In this document: positions 1 to 62,003 of the stretch, piece by piece
Numbering within the stretch: position 1 is the first letter of the stretch
Layout: each line of letters begins with the position of its first letter
Assembly: GCA_018825985.1 (NCBI GenBank)
Contig: JAHKAP010000077.1
Span: forward strand, 566-64,565
Reading direction: 5' to 3'
Length of the DNA: 64,000 bases
Source: Candidatus Omnitrophota bacterium
GTDB taxonomy: Bacteria > Omnitrophota > Gorgyraeia > Gygaellales > Profunditerraquicolaceae
The notes under the pieces: model-generated
The model's database searches: none
What the model saw: only the letters and a program-made list of their open reading frames with translations
What the model was told of the DNA's origin: nothing
Made by a program: the position numbers and the translations under genes

Positions 1-1431
1 CAGAAAAACCCGAAACGGCATAAGGAGCATTATCCCCCCAAAAACACAAATAAAAGCCAAGGCGAGCATAGACAATCTCATTGCCGCCGGCACTTCTTTT
101 ATATTCTTAAATTTATCTTTTAGCCGGCCTAAAAAAGCATACTTCTGCACCTTCATAAAAGAAGCTAGGGTCAAGATACTCCCTATTACGGCGCAAAGCC
201 CATAACCTAAATGACCGCTCTGAATACAAGCAAAGATAATAATAAGCTTACTGAAAAATCCGTTAAAAGGCGGGATCCCGGCAATAGACATCGAGGCAAT
301 CAGATTAGTCTTAGCAGTAACCGGCATAATTTTAGCTAAACCTGAGGTTTCTTTTAAATCTCTTGTCCCTAAGCAATAATCTATGGCCCCGGAATTTAAA
401 AAAAGCAGGGATTTAAATATAGAATGGTTAAACAAATGAAATAATCCTCCTAATATACCTAACGGCGTTCCTAACCCAATACCTAAAACTACGTAACCAA
501 TCTGGCTGATGGAATGATAGGCTAAAAGCCTCTTAAGATCCCACTGTGATAAAGCCAGGATAACCGCTACTAATAAGGATGCTGTGCCTAAAAACATCAA
601 CACGCTCAGATATGCCTGGGTTGAGCCGATGATGCTGAAAAAGACCCTGATTAAGGCATAAACCCCTAGGGTCTTGATTAAAATTCCGGAAAGCATAGCT
701 GAAATCGAAGCCGGAGCAGATGGATGGGCATCAGCAAGCCAGGCATGGAACGGCACCAAGGCAGCCTTCAAGCCAAAACCCATTAAAAATAAGGTCCCCA
801 CAAAAGGCAATACGTAGCTGCTGTGCTTAACGCTTAACACCCTGGCTATATCCGCCATATTCAAAGTAGAGGTAAAGCCGTATAAAAAGGCAATGCCAAT
901 AAAAATGAAACAAGAAGCAACTGAACCCATAATTGCGTATTTAAAAGACGCTTCCAGCTCCTCTGCCTCTGTGCCGAATGCCACTAAGGCATAGCTGGCG
1001 ATAGAGGCAATCTCCAAAAACACGAAAAGGTTGAACAGATCTCCTGTAATAATTATTCCGTTCATACCGCAGACCATTAAAGAAAACAGGGTAAAGAACT
1101 TTGGTTTATCGGTGTACCTTTCCATATAACTTAAGGAATATACGGCTACAAAAAATGAAACCAGGCTTACCATAACCAACATAAAAATACTTAACCCATC
1201 TAACACCAGGCTTATGCCAAAAGGAGGAACCCACCCGCCGATTTTGTAAACTAAAATTTTATCGGCTGTTGAGCTTAAATAAACAGCGCAGGATATAGAC
1301 AAAGCCAGGACTACCGCACTGCTTAAAGATATAGCTATCCCGGCAAAATGCCGGACATACTTGCCCAGTAATGAAATTAAAAACGCAGTTCCTAACGGAA
1401 TAATCACAAAAAAAGGAATGATATTTACCAT
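1..1431 (-). CDS. Mrp/Mbh antiporter-like membrane subunit (NuoN/NuoM/MnhD family), 3' partial (runs off window start)
   Basis: Manual minus-strand translation from the ATG at 1429-1431 gives a polytopic membrane protein (MVNIIPFFVIIPLGTAFL...HAWLADAHPSAPASISAML...) typical of the complex I NuoN/MnhD antiporter-like family. It continues beyond position 1. Confidence 0.6.
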   Translation of the reverse strand, partial: MVNIIPFFVIIPLGTAFLISLLGKYVRHFAGIAISLSSAVVLALSISCAVYLSSTADKILVYKIGGWVPPFGISLVLDGLSIFMLVMVSLVSFFVAVYSLSYMERYTDKPKFFTLFSLMVCGMNGIIITGDLFNLFVFLEIASIASYALVAFGTEAEELEASFKYAIMGSVASCFIFIGIAFLYGFTSTLNMADIARVLSVKHSSYVLPFVGTLFLMGFGLKAALVPFHAWLADAHPSAPASISAMLSGILIKTLGVYALIRVFFSIIGSTQAYLSVLMFLGTASLLVAVILALSQWDLKRLLAYHSISQIGYVVLGIGLGTPLGILGGLFHLFNHSIFKSLLFLNSGAIDYCLGTRDLKETSGLAKIMPVTAKTNLIASMSIAGIPPFNGFFSKLIIIFACIQSGHLGYGLCAVIGSILTLASFMKVQKYAFLGRLKDKFKNIKEVPAAMRLSMLALAFICVFGGIMLLMPFRVFL

Positions 1432-2753: not shown

Positions 2754-4409
2754 TTATTTTAACAATACCCAAAAAAGGCCAATCATCCCCAACAATGTCC
2801 AGACTAAATAAGTAGGTAAAACCCCGTTATGTAAATACTGAAGTACGCGACCGATAGAAAATACTAAATTCTTTCCTTGCTCATAGATATCGAACAGTCC
2901 GGCCTGAGCCTTTTTGTAAACTAAAGCTAATACCGGCAACTCTTTGATGGTGTTATAAAAGTCAGTCCCGTTGATTTTATTCTCCTGAATATCCCTGGTT
3001 TCGCTTCCTGTAAATGGGTTATCCTGACGCAAAACAGGCCTTAACCATCTTAATTTAAATATCAAAAGCCCCAGAACTATACCAATGATAATAAGCCAAG
3101 TAGATAACAAAGCAGACCAGGTTCCGATAAAAGAAACCCCCTTTATAACCGGAAATATAAAGTATTTAAGCGGAATTTGATAAGCTAATACGCCGAATAT
3201 CACGCAAGTAATCGCTAATATTAAACAAGGCAGCCACATTTGCCAAGGAACCTCTTTTACTTGCCAGTTTGCTTTCCGGCCTAAAAAAACCGCATGAATT
3301 AGTTTCATAAAACTGGCTAAGGTCAGGCCCGAACCAAACATTGCCGCGGCCAGGCTAAAGATTGCTATAATACGCAATCCCTGATTACCGGTTCCTAATA
3401 GGCTAATAAGGCCCTGATAGATCATCCACTTAGAGACAAAACCGTTAAAAGGCGGAACACCGGATATAGAAAGGCTGGCAATCAAAGAAGAAATATAGGT
3501 AAGAGGCATGGATTTACCTAAACCGCCTAATTTATCGAGTTCAGAGGTTTTGGTACGATATTCTACGTTTCCGGCAGTTAAAAATAAACAGGATTTATAT
3601 ATTGTATTATTAAGCATATGGAATATGCCACCGGCAATGCCAATAGGATTACCGCTGCCTATACCTAAAATCATATACCCTACCTGAGATACTGCATGAT
3701 AACCCAAGAGCCTCTTCATATTATGTTGAACCAAAGCCATCATTACCCCGGCAATAATGGTAAAGGCCCCGGTAATCATAAGAAATATATTCATGGCCTG
3801 GCTCATCGTAAATATATCCAAAGAAATCCTGGTTAATAAATAAATCCCTAATAATTTATCCAGGGAAGCGAGTAAAAAAGCCACAACGGGAATAGGCGCG
3901 GATTTAGCGCAATCAGGGATCCAGGAATGAAAAGGCATTGCCCCGGCCTTGGCAAAACAGGCGATAGCCAGGCATAAGTATGCTAAAGTAGGTAGTAGGT
4001 AGTAGTTAGTAGATAGGGAAATCTTTATTTGGTCCATCTGAAAAGTTCCGGTCATATAATAGATTATACCTATACCAAACAACATTAAGGCATCCGTTCC
4101 TCCCACGATTATAAAAGTCTTTTTTGCTGCTGAGCTGGCATCATCATTTCCCATAATAATAAGAAGATATAAAGTCAGGCCTAAAAAACCCCAACAGACT
4201 AAAAGCAGGATAAGGTTGTTTGCAAACACGGTTCCTATCGCTGCCAAAGCAGTCAAGATTATATAAACATAATACTGGAACGTTTTGGGCTTGCCTTTTA
4301 TAAACTTAAATGAATAAATTAAAATCAAGGCGAGAAAACCAACTATAGCTAAAGCTATAAATCCGCTTAGCGCGTCTAATTTAAACCAGGGATAGAAGAT
4401 ATTAATCAT
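2754..4409 (-). CDS. NuoL/MnhA/MbhH-like proton/sodium-translocating membrane subunit
   Basis: A 551-aa protein with about 14 TM helices and antiporter-like motifs (WIPDCAKSAPIPVVAFL, ISQVGYMILG). Residues 3981-4016 contain a copy of the TAG-rich repeat. Confidence 0.7.
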   Translation of the reverse strand: MINIFYPWFKLDALSGFIALAIVGFLALILIYSFKFIKGKPKTFQYYVYIILTALAAIGTVFANNLILLLVCWGFLGLTLYLLIIMGNDDASSAAKKTFIIVGGTDALMLFGIGIIYYMTGTFQMDQIKISLSTNYYLLPTLAYLCLAIACFAKAGAMPFHSWIPDCAKSAPIPVVAFLLASLDKLLGIYLLTRISLDIFTMSQAMNIFLMITGAFTIIAGVMMALVQHNMKRLLGYHAVSQVGYMILGIGSGNPIGIAGGIFHMLNNTIYKSCLFLTAGNVEYRTKTSELDKLGGLGKSMPLTYISSLIASLSISGVPPFNGFVSKWMIYQGLISLLGTGNQGLRIIAIFSLAAAMFGSGLTLASFMKLIHAVFLGRKANWQVKEVPWQMWLPCLILAITCVIFGVLAYQIPLKYFIFPVIKGVSFIGTWSALLSTWLIIIGIVLGLLIFKLRWLRPVLRQDNPFTGSETRDIQENKINGTDFYNTIKELPVLALVYKKAQAGLFDIYEQGKNLVFSIGRVLQYLHNGVLPTYLVWTLLGMIGLFWVLLK

Positions 4410-8532: not shown

Positions 8533-9020
8533 TTCTTTTTAGGCTGGATATCCTCTCTTAACCATTTCCTGGAACACACTGCCAGGGTATTGCCTATAAA
8601 ATAAATATTCTGCTCAATATTCTCTTCGACTTCCCGAACCTCAATTGCCTTTTCAGGACAATTAGTAACGCATACCGGCATCGCATCAGCCTTAGTTATA
8701 CAAAAATCACAGCGTGAATCCAGGTATGGTATAAAATCCGTAAGAATCGTGCCAAAAGGACAGGCAATAACGCAAGACTTACAGCTGGTGCAACGCATAT
8801 TGTAACGTTTCAATATCCCGTCAGGCTGTTTTTCCAGGGCATCATGATAACAAGAGTTTACGCAAGGCGCTTCTTCGCAATGCCGGCAAAATAAAGTAAA
8901 GGTGGCATATTCGCGTAAAGAGGTAACTCCGTTATTCTGCGGATGATACAAATAACTGCAAGATGCCCGGCACTCCTTACAGTTATTGCAAATATCCAGA
9001 TCGATATATAATCTTTTCAT
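8529..9020 (-). CDS. 2x[4Fe-4S] ferredoxin-like subunit (MbhN/NuoI-like)
   Basis: Multiple CxxCxxCxxxCP-type motifs (CNNCKECRASC, CRHCEEAPCVNSC, CTSCKSCVIACP, CDFCITKADAMPVCVTNCP). Confidence 0.65.
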   Translation of the reverse strand: MKRLYIDLDICNNCKECRASCSYLYHPQNNGVTSLREYATFTLFCRHCEEAPCVNSCYHDALEKQPDGILKRYNMRCTSCKSCVIACPFGTILTDFIPYLDSRCDFCITKADAMPVCVTNCPEKAIEVREVEENIEQNIYFIGNTLAVCSRKWLREDIQPKKK

Positions 9021-9021
9021 G

Positions 9022-9184
9022 ATCAGTAGGTAGTATGTAGTAGATAGTATATAGGGAAACTAAAACCTATCTAACAACTAATATATATTGCTTTAATTAA
9101 TCAGTAGGAAGCATGTAGTAGATAATATATAGAAAAACCAAACCCTACCTACTACCTACTAACTACTATATACTGGTTCATCAG
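9022..9184. repeat. TAG/CTA-rich low-complexity repeat cluster
   Basis: Two direct copies of about 40 bp (9022-9060 atcagtaggtagtatgtagtagatagtatatagggaaac; 9100-9140 atcagtaggaagcatgtagtagataatatatagaaaaacc) plus a compositionally related inverted CTA-rich copy at 9141-9184. A related sequence lies inside coding DNA at 3981-4016. Confidence 0.5.
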
Positions 9185-26473: not shown

Positions 26474-26491
26474 GCCTTTTTGCCTAAGGGA

Positions 26492-26558
26492 GAAAAAATG
26501 GGGTCAGAATTATTTTTTCTAGCACGCAGGCTAAAGAAAAAATAATTCTGACCCCATT
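26492..26558 (-). terminator. intrinsic terminator hairpin (24-bp perfect stem + U-tract) downstream of trpD
   Basis: aatggggtcagaattattttttct pairs with agaaaaaataattctgaccccatt around a 14-nt loop, followed on the minus strand by TTTTT. Confidence 0.6.
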
Positions 26559-39373: not shown

Positions 39374-39417
39374 AATCCTTTTTTGTTTCCTAGCGCTGCA
39401 ACACTTATCTTGGCGTG

Positions 39418-39542
39418 GGACAATCTCTAAAAAGCGGGAACACGAACTTTTTTGTTTGCGCCCTCTTCAATACTAATCTTGTCGTGGGACAGTCCCCTGA
39501 CCAGACTTCGCCTATAGCTTTCTACGGGGACAGTCCCTGTTG
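39418..39542. repeat. GGGGACAGTCCCC-family palindromic repeat elements (3 copies)
   Basis: gggacaatctc at 39418-39428, gggacagtcccc at 39487-39498 and ggggacagtccc at 39527-39538. The 39487-39542 segment is about 80% identical to 47884-47942. Confidence 0.55.
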
Positions 39543-41582
39543 GCTACCCGGGTCGTCGGTTTCGTTTTTCGAACCTTTATCGTCGTCTGTTTCACTTTTG
39601 TCCTGAGGCAGATTCTTAGAGACAAACCTGCACTTAGGGTAATTGGAACAACCAAAAAAGAAACCCCTTTTGGAACGCCGCTCGATCAATTCTCCTCCAC
39701 AACCGGATTCCGGGCATTTGACCCCGCTGGTTATAGATTTGGAACTCTTGCAAGCCGGATAATCTGAGCAGCTTAAGAATTTACCTTTTCTGCCCCATTT
39801 AATTATCATCGGTTTTCCGCATTTATCGCAAGACTTATCGGAAATAATCACCTCTTTTACAATATTCGCCTGGGCAAAATCCAGGCTGACTTTAAAAGGC
39901 TGGTAAAAATCATTTAACACTTTGAGTTTGTCGATCTTGCCTTCTTCGATCTGATCTAATTCTTCTTCCATCCCGGCGGTAAACTTAACATCAATGACCT
40001 TGGGAAAATATTCCACCAGCAGATCACAGACTTTAAATCCCAGCTCAGTAGGCTGAAGATAACCTTTTAACCTGCGCACATAATCCCTGTACACCAGGGT
40101 ATAAACTATCGGGGCATACGTAGAAGGCCTGCCAATACCTTCCTCCTCCAAAACCTTTATCAATGAACTATCGGAAAACCTTGCCGGCGGCTTGGTAAAA
40201 TGCTGAGAGGGGATCAATCTTTCCAGCCTTAAAACCTCTCCTTTTTCCAAAGTAGGGATGATATTTCTTTTCTTATCATCCTCGCCATTATTATTTTTGC
40301 TGTATACCTTGCTATACCCATCGAATACAAGAACGCTCCCGGAAGCGCTGAACATGTAAATTCCTACGGATATATCAACCGATGTTGCCGAATATACGGC
40401 CGGATTCATCTGGCTGGAGATGAAACGGTTAAAGATCAAATCATAGACTTTATATTGTTCCGGGTTTAAAAAATCTTTAAGGCTCTCGGCAGACCGATTG
40501 ACCATGGTCGGCCGGATCGCTTCATGCGCTTCCTGGGCGAATTTTTTGGTCTTATATACCGGAGGAGTCTGAGGAAGATACTCTTTTCCATATTGCTTTT
40601 GAATAAAATTTCTTGCTTCCTCAAGAGCTTCTTTAGCTACAGAAACTGAATCCGTGCGCATATAAGTTATAAGACCGACCGGCGCTTCTTGCCCGATATC
40701 AATACCTTCGTAGAGCTGCTGGGCAACGATCATAGTTTTAGTAGCATTAAATCTTAATTTGTTAAATGCCTCCTGCTGTAAAGTGCTGGTGATAAACGGC
40801 GGGTCAGGAAAACGCCTCTTTTCGTTTATTTCTATGCCGGAAACCACAAACTTTTTTCCTTTAATATCAGCAGTCAGTTTATCCGCATCGGTCTGGTTAC
40901 CTATTTCAACTTTCTTATCTTCTATCTTAGCCAACTTCGCCGTAAATAGGCCGGCGTCAAGGTGCCCTTGTGTCTTGGCGGCTTTTTCCAGCTCTGCCTC
41001 GACCTCCCAATATTCCTTAGGGATAAAGGCCGCAATCAGCCTCTCCCGCTCAACAATTAATCTTAAGGCAACAGATTGCACCCTTCCGGCGCTTAAACCC
41101 CGTCCGATCTTCTTCCAAAGCAAAGGACTTAAAAAATAACCCACTAACCTATCCAATATCCTGCGGCCGGCCTGGGCTTCGACCATATTAGCGTCAAAAT
41201 CCCGCGATTTACTGAAAGCGGTTTTAACCGCCTGAGAAGTAATTTCATGAAAAACTACCCGCAGGATATTTTTACCCTTAAATATTCTGTCTTTAATATG
41301 CCAGCCGATCGCCTCACCCTCGCGATCAGGGTCAGTAGCAATATAAATAGCCTCTTTTCCTTTGGACATTTTTTTCAGGCTGTCCAGGATCTTTTTTCTT
41401 CCGGAGATAACCACGTAATCCGGTTCAAAATTATTGTCTACATCAACGCCGATCTTTTTTTGGGGCAGGTCGATCAGGTGACCCATGGACGGGACCACCT
41501 CGAAATCGCTGCCTAATATTTTGCTGATGGTCTTGGCCTTGGTCGGCGACTCCACTATCACTAAGCTACTCTTTTTCTTCAT
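39522..41582 (-). CDS. topA: DNA topoisomerase I
   Basis: MKKKSSLVIVESPTKAKTISKILG Toprim N-terminus and C-terminal Zn-ribbon repeats. The last codons (GLSP-stop) are encoded by the palindromic repeat. The exact stop is offset by 1 nt from the ORF-track coordinate by my reading. Confidence 0.9.
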   Translation of the reverse strand: MKKKSSLVIVESPTKAKTISKILGSDFEVVPSMGHLIDLPQKKIGVDVDNNFEPDYVVISGRKKILDSLKKMSKGKEAIYIATDPDREGEAIGWHIKDRIFKGKNILRVVFHEITSQAVKTAFSKSRDFDANMVEAQAGRRILDRLVGYFLSPLLWKKIGRGLSAGRVQSVALRLIVERERLIAAFIPKEYWEVEAELEKAAKTQGHLDAGLFTAKLAKIEDKKVEIGNQTDADKLTADIKGKKFVVSGIEINEKRRFPDPPFITSTLQQEAFNKLRFNATKTMIVAQQLYEGIDIGQEAPVGLITYMRTDSVSVAKEALEEARNFIQKQYGKEYLPQTPPVYKTKKFAQEAHEAIRPTMVNRSAESLKDFLNPEQYKVYDLIFNRFISSQMNPAVYSATSVDISVGIYMFSASGSVLVFDGYSKVYSKNNNGEDDKKRNIIPTLEKGEVLRLERLIPSQHFTKPPARFSDSSLIKVLEEEGIGRPSTYAPIVYTLVYRDYVRRLKGYLQPTELGFKVCDLLVEYFPKVIDVKFTAGMEEELDQIEEGKIDKLKVLNDFYQPFKVSLDFAQANIVKEVIISDKSCDKCGKPMIIKWGRKGKFLSCSDYPACKSSKSITSGVKCPESGCGGELIERRSKRGFFFGCSNYPKCRFVSKNLPQDKSETDDDKGSKNETDDPGSQQGLSP

Positions 41583-43370: not shown

Positions 43371-43380
43371 GCCTCACTGA

Positions 43381-43443
43381 AAATGGGGTCAGAATTATTT
43401 TTTTTCCGAGTCAGATGAATAAAAAATAATTCTGACCCCATTT
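43381..43443 (-). terminator. second copy of the 22-24-bp conserved-stem hairpin (terminator-like)
   Basis: aatggggtcagaattatttttttt pairs with aaaaaataattctgaccccatt. The stem sequence is identical to 26497-26558 but the loop differs. It lies downstream of spoVG. Confidence 0.55.
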
Positions 43444-43455
43444 TTCCTTATTGCG

Positions 43456-47435: not shown

Positions 47436-47850
47436 TTAAAACTTTACGGCCTCACCAACACCGATTTTATGTTTATCCGTAAAGCCGGCGTTAACCTCCA
47501 AAACATACTTTGCGTTGACTTGCGGGGTATAACTAGGACATTCATATTGGCTGCAAGGCGGAACGTTCTTACGGATATCAACTATTATTTTATCCTGGTT
47601 TATCCAAATTATATCCAAAGGAAATTTCATATTCTTCATCCATATATTATGCCTGCCCCTATCCTTAAAAATAAAAAGCATGCCTTCTTTTTCACCCAAT
47701 TTCTCACGAAACATCAAGCCCCTGGACCTGTCTTGCGGAGAATCAACTATTTCAATCTGTATACAAACATTACGGATACAGGCCTGACGGATTTGAGCAT
47801 ATAAAGGAGACAGGAAAAAAATTAATAATAAAATCGGGGACAATCCCCGG
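47436..47850 (-). CDS. DUF192 family protein (start uncertain)
   Basis: Core RGLMFREKLGEKEGMLFIF...WMKNMKFPLDIIWI...VPPCSQYECP matches DUF192/COG1430. The ORF-track N-terminal extension reads through the palindromic repeats and is probably not translated. Confidence 0.55.
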
Positions 47851-47942
47851 GAAACGGGGATAGAAAATAGGAAAAAAAACCTTGGGGACAGTCCCCTTAA
47901 GAACCTTCGTAGATAGCTTTGTACGGAGACAGTCCCTATGTT
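47837..47942. repeat. GGGGACAGTCCCC-family palindromic repeat elements (second locus, 3 copies)
   Basis: ggggacaatcccc at 47837-47849, ggggacagtcccc at 47884-47896 and ggagacagtccc at 47925-47936. The block is homologous to the 39487-39542 segment. Confidence 0.55.
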
Positions 47943-48903
47943 AGGGCAGAATGCCATTTTCTTTATATTTTAAATAGTCTTCTAAGATATTTTTGTGGTC
48001 AAAAGCAAAATCCAAACCCTTTATCTCATCCAGTTTAATTACTTTCAAACCGGCTGCGTCGTCTCCAGCCTTAGGCGTTCCAATACCCCTTGCCAGGAAA
48101 ACCGTACCAATAGTATGAAAACGGGGGTCGCGATCAGGATTAGAATAAGTATGGAATTGCCTGAGATCCTGTAATTCCAGATCGGTCTCTTCTTTCATCT
48201 CCCTCTTAACCGCATCTTCCAGACATTCGCCATAATCTACGAATCCTCCGGGCAAAGCCCAGCCAAAAGGAGGATTACTTCTTTGAATAATCACAATACC
48301 TGTTTGAACGCCTGATACCGGGACTTCGATAATAGCGTCTACAGTAGTAAAAGGCCCGCTTTGTAACTTATGTATGATATATTCTAAATAACTAATAACA
48401 TTCTTATTAAATGCATCCAAAGCTTCCCGGTCATACAAACAGAATATTATCTCCTGAATAGAAGTTTTGTTTTCTTTTAAATGCCTAAATGCCTCTTGGG
48501 CCATAATCTTAGCCGCGGCTACTAAAGAAAATCCTCCTACTCCGCAGCCTAAGGCTGGGAATGCAATAGAATTTACCTTTAATTCATCCGCAACCAGTAA
48601 TGCAGCACGACAGGAATTTCGGATTTTAACTTCATCAGTCTTGAAATCCATTCCCATAGTTGCGGCATGGATAACATATTTAGCCGGCAAATTTCCCGCT
48701 GCGGTTGCAACCGCCTCCCCGATCTTAATAGGCCCTAATTTAGCCGCTTCATCCTCGATATCTTTTCCGCCTTTTCTTCTTATTACTCCGGCAACTCCTC
48801 CGCCCATAACCAATTTATTATTAGCGGCATTGACTATAGCGTCCACCTTCAATTCCGTTATATCGCCTTGAATAATTTTTATCTCAGTGTTTTTTATTTT
48901 CAT
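47941..48903 (-). CDS. MacroD-type macro domain fused to NUDIX hydrolase
   Basis: An N-terminal macro domain (IKIIQGDITELKVDAIVNAANNKLVMGGGVAGVI) and a C-terminal Nudix box GGFVDYGECLEDAVKREMKEETDLE. 320 aa. Confidence 0.75.
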   Translation of the reverse strand: MKIKNTEIKIIQGDITELKVDAIVNAANNKLVMGGGVAGVIRRKGGKDIEDEAAKLGPIKIGEAVATAAGNLPAKYVIHAATMGMDFKTDEVKIRNSCRAALLVADELKVNSIAFPALGCGVGGFSLVAAAKIMAQEAFRHLKENKTSIQEIIFCLYDREALDAFNKNVISYLEYIIHKLQSGPFTTVDAIIEVPVSGVQTGIVIIQRSNPPFGWALPGGFVDYGECLEDAVKREMKEETDLELQDLRQFHTYSNPDRDPRFHTIGTVFLARGIGTPKAGDDAAGLKVIKLDEIKGLDFAFDHKNILEDYLKYKENGILP

Positions 48904-59140: not shown

Positions 59141-60439
59141 CTAACTACTACTTACTGCCTTTTGGCCGATATCCCGGCGATAATGCATCCCTTCAAAACT
59201 AATCTTTCCTACTGCCTGGTAAGTATTATCAATTGCCTCTTTTACGGTATTGCCTAAGCCGGTAACTCCCAGCACTCTTCCTCCATTAGTCATATATTTA
59301 GCTGTAGACTGTTGACCGTGGACAGCGGGCCTGATCGTCCCGGAGTGGAAAACTACAATATCTTTTATTTGAGCGGCTTGATCCAGGCCGAATATTTTTT
59401 TATCTTTTTGATAGGCACCTGGATAACCTTCAGAAGCGCAGACTACGCAAACACAAGAGCGCTCATCCCATTTAAACTGGCTGATCTTGCTTAATTTACC
59501 TTCGACAACAGCCAACATTACTTCCAGCAGATCTGATTTCATCCTGGGCAATATTGCTTGGGTTTCGGGATCGCCGAAACGCACATTAAATTCAAGGGTC
59601 TTTGGCCCATCCTTAGTAAGCATAATCCCGGCATAAAGCACGCCCTTATATTCTATGCCTTCTTTAGCCAATCCATCAATGGTCCGGTAAATTATTTTCT
59701 CCAATATCTCTTTAAACAAACCAGGTGTAACTATTGCGGCCGGAGAATAAGCGCCCATACCTCCGGTATTCGGGCCTAAATCATTATTAAATACTCTTTT
59801 ATGATCCTGGGCAGAAGCTAAAGCAACAACTTCTTTTGAATCCGTGATAACCAAGATTGAGGCTTCCTCACCTTCTAAACATTCTTCAATGATAACTTTA
59901 TCTCCGGCAGAACCAAATACCTTATCCTCCATAATCATTCGCAGGGCGTCTTTGGCTTCATCAACTGTTTTAGCTACAACTACGCCTTTACCCTGGGCCA
60001 GGCCATCAGCCTTAACAACGCAAGGTGAACCTTTTTTTTCAATATATCTTTTGGCATCTTCCGGATCATCGAAAACTTTAAAATCAGCAGTGGGAACTTT
60101 GTATTTTGCCATCAGCTCCTTGCTAAAAACTTTGCTTCTTTCCAGATTAGCGGCTCGTTTATTCGGGCCGAATATCTTAAGCCCGGCTTTCTGAAATTCA
60201 TCCACGATACCGTTAGCTAAAACAGCTTCCGGTCCAACCACGGTAAGATCAATCTTTTCTTCTCGGGCAAATTCCAACAACCCAGAAATATCATCGGTTT
60301 TAATCGGGATGCATTCAGCTATATCGGCGATACCGCCGTTACCCGGAGCGCAAAATATTTTCTTAGCCAGTTTAGATTGCGCTATCTTCCACACAATCGC
60401 ATGCTCCCTGCCCCCCGAACCAATTACCAATATTCGCAT
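59141..60439 (-). CDS. purD: phosphoribosylamine-glycine ligase
   Basis: N-terminus MRILVIGSGGREHAI and ATP-grasp architecture. 432 aa. Confidence 0.9.
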   Translation of the reverse strand: MRILVIGSGGREHAIVWKIAQSKLAKKIFCAPGNGGIADIAECIPIKTDDISGLLEFAREEKIDLTVVGPEAVLANGIVDEFQKAGLKIFGPNKRAANLERSKVFSKELMAKYKVPTADFKVFDDPEDAKRYIEKKGSPCVVKADGLAQGKGVVVAKTVDEAKDALRMIMEDKVFGSAGDKVIIEECLEGEEASILVITDSKEVVALASAQDHKRVFNNDLGPNTGGMGAYSPAAIVTPGLFKEILEKIIYRTIDGLAKEGIEYKGVLYAGIMLTKDGPKTLEFNVRFGDPETQAILPRMKSDLLEVMLAVVEGKLSKISQFKWDERSCVCVVCASEGYPGAYQKDKKIFGLDQAAQIKDIVVFHSGTIRPAVHGQQSTAKYMTNGGRVLGVTGLGNTVKEAIDNTYQAVGKISFEGMHYRRDIGQKAVSSS

Positions 60440-60441
60440 AT
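60398..60441. repeat. 44-bp perfect direct repeat, copy A (covers purD codons 1-14)
   Basis: cgcatgctccctgccccccgaaccaattaccaatattcgcatat, identical to 61908-61951. Confidence 0.85.
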
Positions 60442-60448
60442 TTTTCTT

Positions 60449-61895: not shown

Positions 61896-61949
61896 TTACC
61901 TTAGCAACGCATGCTCCCTGCCCCCCGAACCAATTACCAATATTCGCAT
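61896..61949 (-). other. 17-codon leader ORF derived from duplicated purD start (MRILVIGSGGREHALLR), stop 1 nt before GH gene ATG
   Basis: Manual translation of the minus strand gives ATG...TAA-T-ATG(GH). The purD-type GGAGG RBS lies 12 nt upstream of this ATG. Confidence 0.4.
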
Positions 61950-61951
61950 AT
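61908..61951. repeat. 44-bp perfect direct repeat, copy B
   Basis: Identical to 60398-60441. Confidence 0.85.
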
Positions 61952-62003
61952 TACTTTCTTGCCTCCAATACTAACATAGGGCAGTCTAAAACGTCTACAC
62001 CAC

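Follow-up and report, generated by a model that had tools for sequence, protein, structure and literature searches.

Palindromic blocks at two operon junctions

The 3' end of topA in this Omnitrophota contig overlaps a block of short palindromes that recurs at a second locus, which raises the question of whether such blocks are a mobile repeat, a transcription terminator, a binding or recombination site, or an RNA signal of the operons in which they lie. The repeated palindromes of the original prediction are confirmed: in the window (the whole 64-kb stretch of DNA analysed here), 8 strand-matches to GGGACAGTCCC with at most one mismatch were found against 0.54 expected, and none of 100 shuffles equalled that number. 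The match positions are 39486, 39527, 47837, 47885 and 47926, with a further copy carrying two mismatches at 39417, and neither a pattern search nor an unfiltered covariance-model search of the window detected GGGACAGTCCC-type sites beyond these six. All six are GGGAC(A/T)GTCCC-type sites, grouped in two intergenic blocks and showing one polarity, that of the sense (minus) strand of the flanking genes, with an identical centre base; read on the minus strand, they give GGGACTGTCCC.

Both blocks lie in the stop-to-start gap of two consecutive co-directional genes. The gene order, all on the minus strand, is dprA, topA, element, xerC and kdtA at locus 1, and yjbQ, Macro-NUDIX, element and DUF192 at locus 2. 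Since the flanking genes are all on the minus strand, xerC lies downstream of the element and not upstream, as had been stated. The TopA of the window is identical to one in assembly GCA_018827765.1. GC skew is negative in every 2-kb bin of the window (positions 1–64000, −0.04 to −0.27) and the minus strand carries most genes, which places the whole window on one replichore with its genes co-oriented with replication; within a single replichore, the orientation of the element relative to genes and its orientation relative to replication are one and the same.

The two blocks have 53 nt in common (39486–39538 and 47885–47937, 81% identity), close to the homologous segment of ~55 bp first proposed, and locus 1 also contains a local tandem duplication of 48 nt (39378–39425 and 39447–39494, 79% identity) that the original prediction had missed. 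On folding, two palindromes of a block pair as the arms of a single hairpin, 12–13 bp long and interrupted at its centre by a T·T (U·U) mismatch. The six palindromes thus stand as sites, but a better description is two hairpins and two further copies that are partial or extra. Given as the sense strand, locus 1 reads ...GCCAACA-GGGACTGTCCCCG-(27 nt)-AGGGGACTGTCCC-ACGACAAGATTAG... and locus 2 reads ...CATA-GGGACTGTCTCCG-(27 nt)-AGGGGACTGTCCC-CAAGGTTTTTTTT... The individual features are given below, where bit scores refer to R1, a covariance model built on an alignment of 72 metagenomic copies of the same family, and L127 is a related contig.

39446..39553, minus strand: full-length module copy of locus 1, in the topA–xerC gap (R1 62.2 bits, E 6e-15 (about 1e-15), model positions 1–83 of 83)
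39526..39537, minus strand: 5' arm GGGACTGTCCCC of the locus 1 hairpin, overlapping the last topA codons (sequence, fold, model alignment)
39498..39525, minus strand: long-loop insert of ~27 nt, GTAGAAAGCTATAGGCGAAGTCTGGTCA, of locus 1 (TTTTT at the same place in L127)
39522–39524, minus strand: topA stop codon TAG, within the locus 1 loop insert (sequence)
39486..39497, minus strand: 3' arm GGGGACTGTCCC of the locus 1 hairpin (motif match, sequence, fold, model alignment)
39446..39485, minus strand: conserved right flank ACGACAAGATTAGTATTG... of locus 1 (alignment to the model consensus ACGACAAGAUAAGuaUuGauuGggAGAU)
39378..39427, minus strand: partial tandem duplicate of locus 1, half arm GAGATTGTCCC (39417–39427) plus right flank ACGCCAAGATAAGTGTTG... 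(79% identity to 39447–39494)
47885..47937, minus strand: hairpin of locus 2, directly after the Macro-NUDIX stop (R1 24.4 bits, E 3e-4 to 9e-4, model positions 16–43; fold)
47872..47879, minus strand: U8 run starting 4 nt past the locus 2 hairpin (sequence, terminator scan)
47835..47858, minus strand: third palindrome of locus 2, GGGGATTGTCCCC, with a small upstream stem CCCCGTTTCCCGGGG (motif match, sequence, terminator scan, fold)

The Shine-Dalgarno part of the module has diverged in the locus 1 copy, and the partial duplicate, which is absent from L127, reaches the xerC ribosome-binding site and ATG. The locus 2 hairpin is made up of the 5' arm GGGACTGTCTCC, a long-type loop and the 3' arm GGGGACTGTCCC; a C-to-T change in its 5' arm results in a G·U pair, so that pairing is kept. 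It is followed by AAGG and then by the U8 run, and the same flank, CAAGGTTTTTTTTCC, is found in L127. The third palindrome of this locus is a degenerate extra unit, located where L127 carries three tandem units. Both window copies are without a GTAG head, reading ACAG and ATAG instead. No acceptable −35/−10 pair of a sigma70 promoter was found inside the element, and a tRNA/tmRNA scan detected none.

Effects on gene calls

The repeat distorts the annotation of both neighbouring genes. As the original prediction held, topA (39522–41582, minus strand) ends ...QGLSP* within the repeat. In L127, topA stops at a TAG inside GCCAGTAGGG, and the same codon is CAG in the window, which explains why TopA is 5 codons longer here (QGLSP), up to the next TAG. 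The proposed N-terminal extension of DUF192 is likewise confirmed, as the 173-aa ORF (47436–47957, minus strand) runs through all three palindromes of locus 2 while the Pfam domain starts at residue 66. The length of this gene depends on the route by which it is called, being 92 aa in the window gene call, 173 aa as an ORF and 182 aa in L127, and all three look imperfect. The third palindrome may overlap the true DUF192 start, a putative in-frame TTG; starting there would give a 135-aa protein with a signal-peptide-like N-terminus. A coding explanation for the palindromes themselves (the GLSP peptide) was ruled out, because they are in different reading frames.

Other repeats in the window

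The window contains a second repeat family at 26491–26558 and 43380–43448, formed by a perfect 24-bp inverted repeat, AAAATGGGGTCAGAATTATTTTTT ... AAAAAATAATTCTGACCCCATTTT. Its sites are spacers between co-directional minus-strand genes, one of them spoVG|aroK; they fold at −33 to −47 kcal/mol, and their A/T-rich shoulders resemble those of bidirectional terminators. An exact direct repeat of 45 nt (CGCATGCTCCCTGCCCCCCGAACCAATTACCAATATTCGCATATT) is present at 60398–60442 and 61908–61952, with the copies 1510 nt apart, and low-complexity repeats of the AGTAGGTAGTAG type occur at 3987–4021, 9013–9083 and 9091–9161, with one inverted copy at 9145–9170.

Presence and absence in close relatives

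Synteny around topA is kept in three relatives, L127, L129 and L130. The closest by TopA identity (L127, 88%) carries the motif at the same two loci, with a full-length R1 match of 77.5 bits. After topA it has a minimal hairpin, GCCAGTA-GGGACTGTCCCCG-TTTTT-CGGGGACTGTCCC-ACGACAAGATAAG, and its three tandem units after Macro-NUDIX are each followed by AAGGTTTT. No copy was detected in 44 kb of L129 (TopA 73% identical) and L130 (71%), where topA and xerC are separated by spacers of 5 and 32 nt, respectively, without the element. Presence in L127 and absence in L129 and L130 indicate a lineage-specific insertion that predates the divergence of the window species from L127.

A hairpin family in related metagenome contigs

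Further copies, for which a search was suggested at the outset, number more than 100 in metagenome contigs: 106 stretches carry GGGACTGTCCCRCGACAAGAT, in 104 distinct contexts. Full-length copies were found in only two Omnitrophota-labelled MAG contigs, L015 (R1 89.5 bits) and L058 (88.8 bits), and for the JGI contigs an Omnitrophota origin is mostly assumed from their similarity to named Omnitrophota contigs. Read from sequence, the family is a module of ~85 nt consisting of an upstream stop codon, AGCGTTGCCAGTA, the hairpin, ACGACAAGATAAG..GGGAG and a downstream ATG. The consensus of 72 copies is AAGCnTTGCCAGTA GGGACTGTCCCC GAA GGGGACTGTCCC ACGACAAGATAAGnnTTGATTGGGAGATAnGCnAAA, followed by ATG.

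Over its 13 pairs, the stem is 98.6% paired in the 72 copies, and 11 core pairs are essentially invariant. The outermost pair, just outside the palindromes, covaries (UA 48, CG 20, UG 1, other 3) and leaves a bulged A, and so does a second pair, the one that closes the loop (CG 70, AU 1). Wobble pairs are few (U·G 2 times, C·A 3 times), and these counts fit RNA and single-stranded DNA alike. RNAalifold predicted this hairpin only, with open flanks. A long-range CCAGU/AUUGG helix that was predicted on the consensus, and that would sequester the ribosome-binding site, showed no compensating changes on reading the alignment and is missing from the RNAalifold structure. The head resembles the GT(A/G)G type, with GCCAGTA-G in 51 of 86 copies and GCCAGCA-G in 10; the T/C of this 'GTAG' covaries with the base 3' of the stem, which indicates that it is paired and not an unpaired tag.

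Arm spacing ranges from 3 to 76 nt. Short loops are GAA (25 copies), GCA (13) and GUA (6), all of which form a C-GNA-G triloop, and the other loops are discrete inserts of 24–29 nt or longer. About a third of the family copies have the long loop of 24–29 nt, with a conserved GCTAA/GCTAT and an AAG end. In some copies, the long insert consists of the hairpin again, inverted and with a UUCG loop, and carries a compensating double change GGGTCAGTCCCC/GGGGACAGACCC, as fits the insertion of DNA copies. Such nested hairpins were observed in the module loop at L147 1114–1242, L170 360–488, L173 4378–4505 and L187 11472–11600, with the form GGG(T/C)CAGTCCCC-TTCG-GGGGACAGACCC, in which A and T are exchanged in a compensating manner with respect to the main stem and the centre is A·A.

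Searches against Rfam gave nothing in the window at gathering scores, in the two window loci with E-values of up to 10 allowed, or in 18 loci of other phyla. A literature search for the motif as a DNA or RNA string returned only eukaryotic primer matches, and a full-text search for Omnitrophota together with REP or extragenic palindromes returned nothing relevant. Given this lack of an Rfam model and of a relevant match in the literature, the hairpin family appears to be undescribed.

Genomic placement

The R1 model gave 145 matches in 617 kb of related metagenome contigs, all co-oriented within each locus. Contig L195 has seven copies in 12 kb, at rsmD|coaD, rpmF|plsX, plsX|fabH, fabH|fabD (two), fabD|fabG and leuD|leuB, and L133 has seven in 9 kb; the density in the window is 2 loci per 64 kb. 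A co-directional ORF stops −1 to 41 nt ahead of the 5' arm in 78 of the 104 contexts, often at the TAA of TAAGCGTTG or the TAG of CCAGTAGGG, and a co-directional ORF starts shortly downstream of the module in 97 of the 104. The downstream genes have diverse housekeeping roles and include argG, argH, proC, carA, leuB/C/D, serS, rplA, rplF, rpsJ, nadD, coaD, rpe, fabD and others. A few copies come immediately after a sigma70-like promoter, a tRNA 3' end or a terminator. Placement after promoters and tRNA 3' ends, as well as between cistrons, identifies the module as part of the transcript and not as a promoter, and the variable loop length excludes a promoter spanning the hairpin. At junctions that are orthologous across species, flank identity is 0.69–0.81, against a synonymous third-position identity of 0.59.

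The core palindrome in other phyla and its link to RAYT genes

A genome scan with one genome per species, in which two cores had to lie 20–50 nt apart, returned at least 120 stretches. Among the matches listed, Planctomycetota was the most frequent taxon, accompanied by Omnitrophota, Kiritimatiellia, Nitrospirota, Desulfobacterota, Acidobacteriota, Actinomycetota, Bacillota, Bacteroidota, Saccharibacteria and Proteobacteria, and the cores were arranged as hairpin doublets, extended single palindromes or tandem arrays. In the fetched loci, the core centre base was A or T at 369 sites and C or G at 4. Copies from Nitrospirota and Desulfobacterota have a common inner stem, ATTTACGG...CCGTAGAAT. 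No strong gene family was enriched beside these cross-phylum loci, where the cluster of Y1 transposases was small; core orientation relative to genes showed no bias across phyla (with crude ORF calls), and GTAG was found in only 18 of 736 flanks of the cross-phylum cores. In an unclassified MAG (L012, ~1035–1135, minus strand), a hairpin doublet lies directly upstream or in the leader of a prepilin-type (GFTLIELLVV) gene, an association with type IV pilin-like genes that was considered incidental, as it involves 2 of about 130 sites.

A clear association with a transposase was found in Firmicutes. In L096, a Eubacterium MAG, a Y1_Tnp gene (E 8e-14) is preceded by CAATTGGGGACAGTCCCCAAA and followed by CAATTGGGGACTGTCCCCAAATGCTAGAC, the two being inverted relative to each other. 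Homologues of its protein, with 69, 56 and 46% identity, are encoded in L240, L241 and L242, respectively, where palindromes with the apex GGGGAC(A/T)GTCCCC occur on both sides of the gene and have genome-specific outer stems (TGTACAAAT, GTACCATT and GCAACAAAA). The centre bases on the two sides of the RAYT gene are opposite in L096 and L240 and the same in L241 and L242; the inverted orientation of the flanking core is thus readable in only two of the four Firmicutes MAGs. Several homologues of the L096 protein are named 'REP element-mobilizing transposase RayT' by their source, and a RAYT gene flanked by inverted repeats is the arrangement that defines RAYT-REP units (Nunvar 2010, PMC2817692). 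In L241 (1201–1932) and L242 (1201–1929), the RAYT gene and its flanking palindromes lie inside the leu operon, between leuA and leuB and co-oriented with them.

The search for a cognate RAYT succeeded in part: RAYT genes of Firmicutes MAGs are flanked by the same 13-nt core, but neither the window nor ~0.9 Mb of Omnitrophota-like loci yielded a Y1 transposase gene. Planctomycete RAYTs (L007-like) were also considered as cognate enzymes and rejected, because their own flanks carry a different repeat, GGGGACAC..AACCGAT. Such a RAYT occurs in L237, L238 and L239 (around 2400–2500 and 3160–3200), with 78–96% identity over 120 database clusters and inverted flanks GGGGACAC(A/T)AACCGAT... and ...ATCGGTT(T)ATGTCCCC, which have only the GGGGACA/TGTCCCC ends in common with the palindrome studied here. 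As these repeats differ, not every neighbouring RAYT is cognate, and the cross-phylum link rests on the Firmicutes clade together with a suggestive array in a Kiritimatiellae contig. The shared 13-nt core would explain why the same palindrome recurs across distant phyla and offers a direct handle on sequence recognition by RAYTs.

Alternative explanations

One alternative is that the module is a selected cis-acting RNA unit that punctuates operons with a stop codon, a hairpin and a ribosome-binding site, and is not mobile DNA, its likeness to REP sequences reflecting origin only. An RNA-binding protein or RNase of Omnitrophota would then recognize the module to process, stabilize or translationally tune cistrons, and the copies would be kept by purifying selection. 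The module is sense-oriented throughout, directly adjoins the start codon and contains GGGAG; the same junctions are filled in several species (rplK|rplA and upstream of proC, carA, leuB and a ymdB-like gene), with flanks more conserved than synonymous sites. Some copies come right after sigma70-like promoters and hence form a 5' leader, nested copies have a UUCG loop, and the near-invariance of the 11 core stem pairs suggests sequence-specific recognition. Against this stand the patchy spread, from none in L129 and L130 through two loci in the window to one copy per 1.5–2 kb elsewhere, the tandem and nested inverted copies, the core shared with RAYT-flanking repeats and the lack of an Rfam family match. 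The window copies are, moreover, decaying, with the head lost, the Shine-Dalgarno part diverged and a different flank at locus 2. On balance, we regard a selected RNA element in place of mobile DNA as rather unlikely.

The remaining alternatives explain less of the data. Terminator function, which had been suggested for both blocks, is plausible only for locus 2: AAGG and U8 come after its hairpin, terminator-like sites are reported there by the scan and L127 has the same flank; across phyla, too, the core is often found between an A-rich 5' and a T-rich 3' sequence. Neither locus 1 nor the main family, however, has a U-tract (the 3' flank is ACGACAAGAUAAG), the next start codon of the same operon follows within ~35 nt, and even at locus 2 the U-tract begins 4 nt past the stem, so it is improbable that the blocks are intrinsic (Rho-independent) terminators sharing a stem sequence by happenstance. 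A set of operators, in which each palindrome is bound as double-stranded DNA by a dimeric regulator with cooperative binding between sites, would account for arms that are near-perfect 11–13 bp palindromes with an A/T centre, for a stem sequence that hardly varies and for the arrays of ~20–28 bp period in other phyla. Nevertheless, an arm distance of 3–76 nt shows no helical phasing, a pair outside the palindromes covaries and extends the stem, the loops are of the hairpin type, and the arms of the nested variant are complementary but non-palindromic. The sites also lie inside transcripts, downstream of promoters, the downstream genes have no common function and no regulator gene is enriched nearby, all of which makes the repeated protein-binding site of the original prediction highly improbable. 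An Xer site was suggested by the adjacency of xerC, which applies to locus 1 only. A dif site is ~28 bp long, with two 11-bp arms around a 6–8 bp centre; sequence inspection revealed no such 11-6-11 architecture, L129 and L130 keep topA and xerC together without the element, and locus 2 and the more than 100 other copies are unrelated to xerC. Simple segmental duplication is contradicted by the different flanking genes of the two loci and by the further copies, and chance by the excess of matches over expectation; an explanation by any of these three has a negligible probability. Of the REP/MITE-like label given to the blocks, a dispersed REP-like palindromic family is what we found, whereas a MITE was rejected: the TAAGCGTTG-like motifs to the left and right of a copy differ from each other, the flanks do not form inverted repeats and there is no target-site duplication.

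A probable REP-type doublet transcribed within operons

We consider it likely that both window blocks are decayed REP/REPIN-type elements with the core GGGGAC(A/T)GTCCCC, transcribed as intercistronic hairpins. Their structure, clustering, position after stop codons, nested and tandem copies, patchy occurrence among lineages and RAYT-shared core place them with REP/REPIN elements. Two cores, split by a 3-nt GNA loop or an insert of 24–76 nt, pair into one hairpin of 12–14 bp, in which the T·T (U·U) mismatch at the centre is invariant and an A is bulged. In Omnitrophota, this doublet is embedded in a module whose flanks are fixed, with AGCGTTGCCAGTA 5' of the hairpin and ACGACAAGATAAG...GGGAG 3' of it, and which lies, always sense-oriented, in the gap between a stop and the next start. 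A RAYT-type Y1 (HUH) transposase probably spread the module in single-stranded DNA form, by extension from the Firmicutes units to Omnitrophota. Once in place, it would be transcribed as part of the operon mRNA, where the hairpin probably acts as a boundary at the RNA level, either an exonuclease block or a processing mark between cistrons. The window copies are eroding; at locus 1, the GTAG head is lost, TopA is extended by the TAG-to-CAG change and half a unit is duplicated, while at locus 2 the hairpin and U8 probably serve as an intrinsic terminator or attenuator after the Macro-NUDIX gene.

Some features do not sit easily with a classical REP family. REP and REPIN sequences are present as many dispersed copies per genome, usually more than 100, and two loci in 64 kb are far below classical REP densities. 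The strict sense orientation, the built-in Shine-Dalgarno sequence, the conserved orthologous junctions and the flanks that are more conserved than synonymous sites are also unusual for a selfish REP, and a selected RNA element would account for them equally well. These differences and the excess conservation leave room for a selected RNA function. It is conceivable, as a tentative extension, that some Omnitrophota turned a RAYT-type REP doublet into a standardized intercistronic cassette of ~85 nt that selection maintains as a signal for RNA processing or translation, while the 13-nt core GGGGACWGTCCCC, observed in repeats of more than 10 phyla among the matches listed, is the cross-phylum recognition element of one RAYT lineage. 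Such a cassette would supply stop codons in two frames, a 14-bp hairpin with a U·U mismatch and a ribosome-binding site, and would punctuate a large share of operon junctions. The window is thus an entry point to a hairpin family that, in some uncultivated Omnitrophota, sits on most operon junctions and includes the downstream ribosome-binding site, and the family would be a natural test case of how selfish REP-type DNA becomes part of operon expression.

Comparison with known systems

The general features and location of the REP class are taken from Di Nocera 2013 (PMC3733652) and Nunvar 2010 (PMC2817692), and those of REPINs from the abstract of Bertels & Rainey (PMC3337134). REPs are extragenic and for the most part follow coding regions, where the neighbouring genes are unidirectional or convergent. 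Like REP and REPIN sequences, the hairpin family described here is short, GC-rich and imperfectly palindromic, has a mismatch in its stem and a short loop, and forms doublets that pair into a longer hairpin, as in REPINs. It also resembles REPs in its clusters and tandem copies, in its location between co-directional genes just after stop codons and in the GT(A/G)G-like head of most family copies. The likeness extends in part to RAYT-REP units, given that the same 13-nt core flanks RAYT genes in four Firmicutes MAGs, inverted in L096 and L240. Unlike REP and REPIN sequences, each arm is itself palindromic, the orientation is strictly sense, and there are conserved flanks of ~13 and 40 nt, with stop codons and a downstream ribosome-binding site; the T of 'GTAG' is base-paired, no RAYT was seen in the Omnitrophota loci examined and the window has few copies. 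Further counterparts are long-stem REPs of the GTAG-24 type (PMC3733652), which have stems of 12–13 bp with a mismatch or bulge and loops of 2–4 nt to ~27 nt, but differ in stem sequence and phyla, and no GGGAC/GTCCC string occurs in the text of that paper.

With intrinsic terminators, the likeness is confined to locus 2, a GC-rich hairpin followed by a U-run, whereas locus 1 and the main family are without such a run and have a stem sequence common to many loci and phyla. The REP/BIME sequences of E. coli offer a functional parallel. They differ from the module in occurring in both orientations, and we know of no ribosome-binding-site module in them. Nonetheless, their hairpins, like that of the module, lie ~0–20 nt from the upstream stop codon, inside operons, where they reportedly act as mRNA stabilizers and as stop-codon-proximal modulators of translation.
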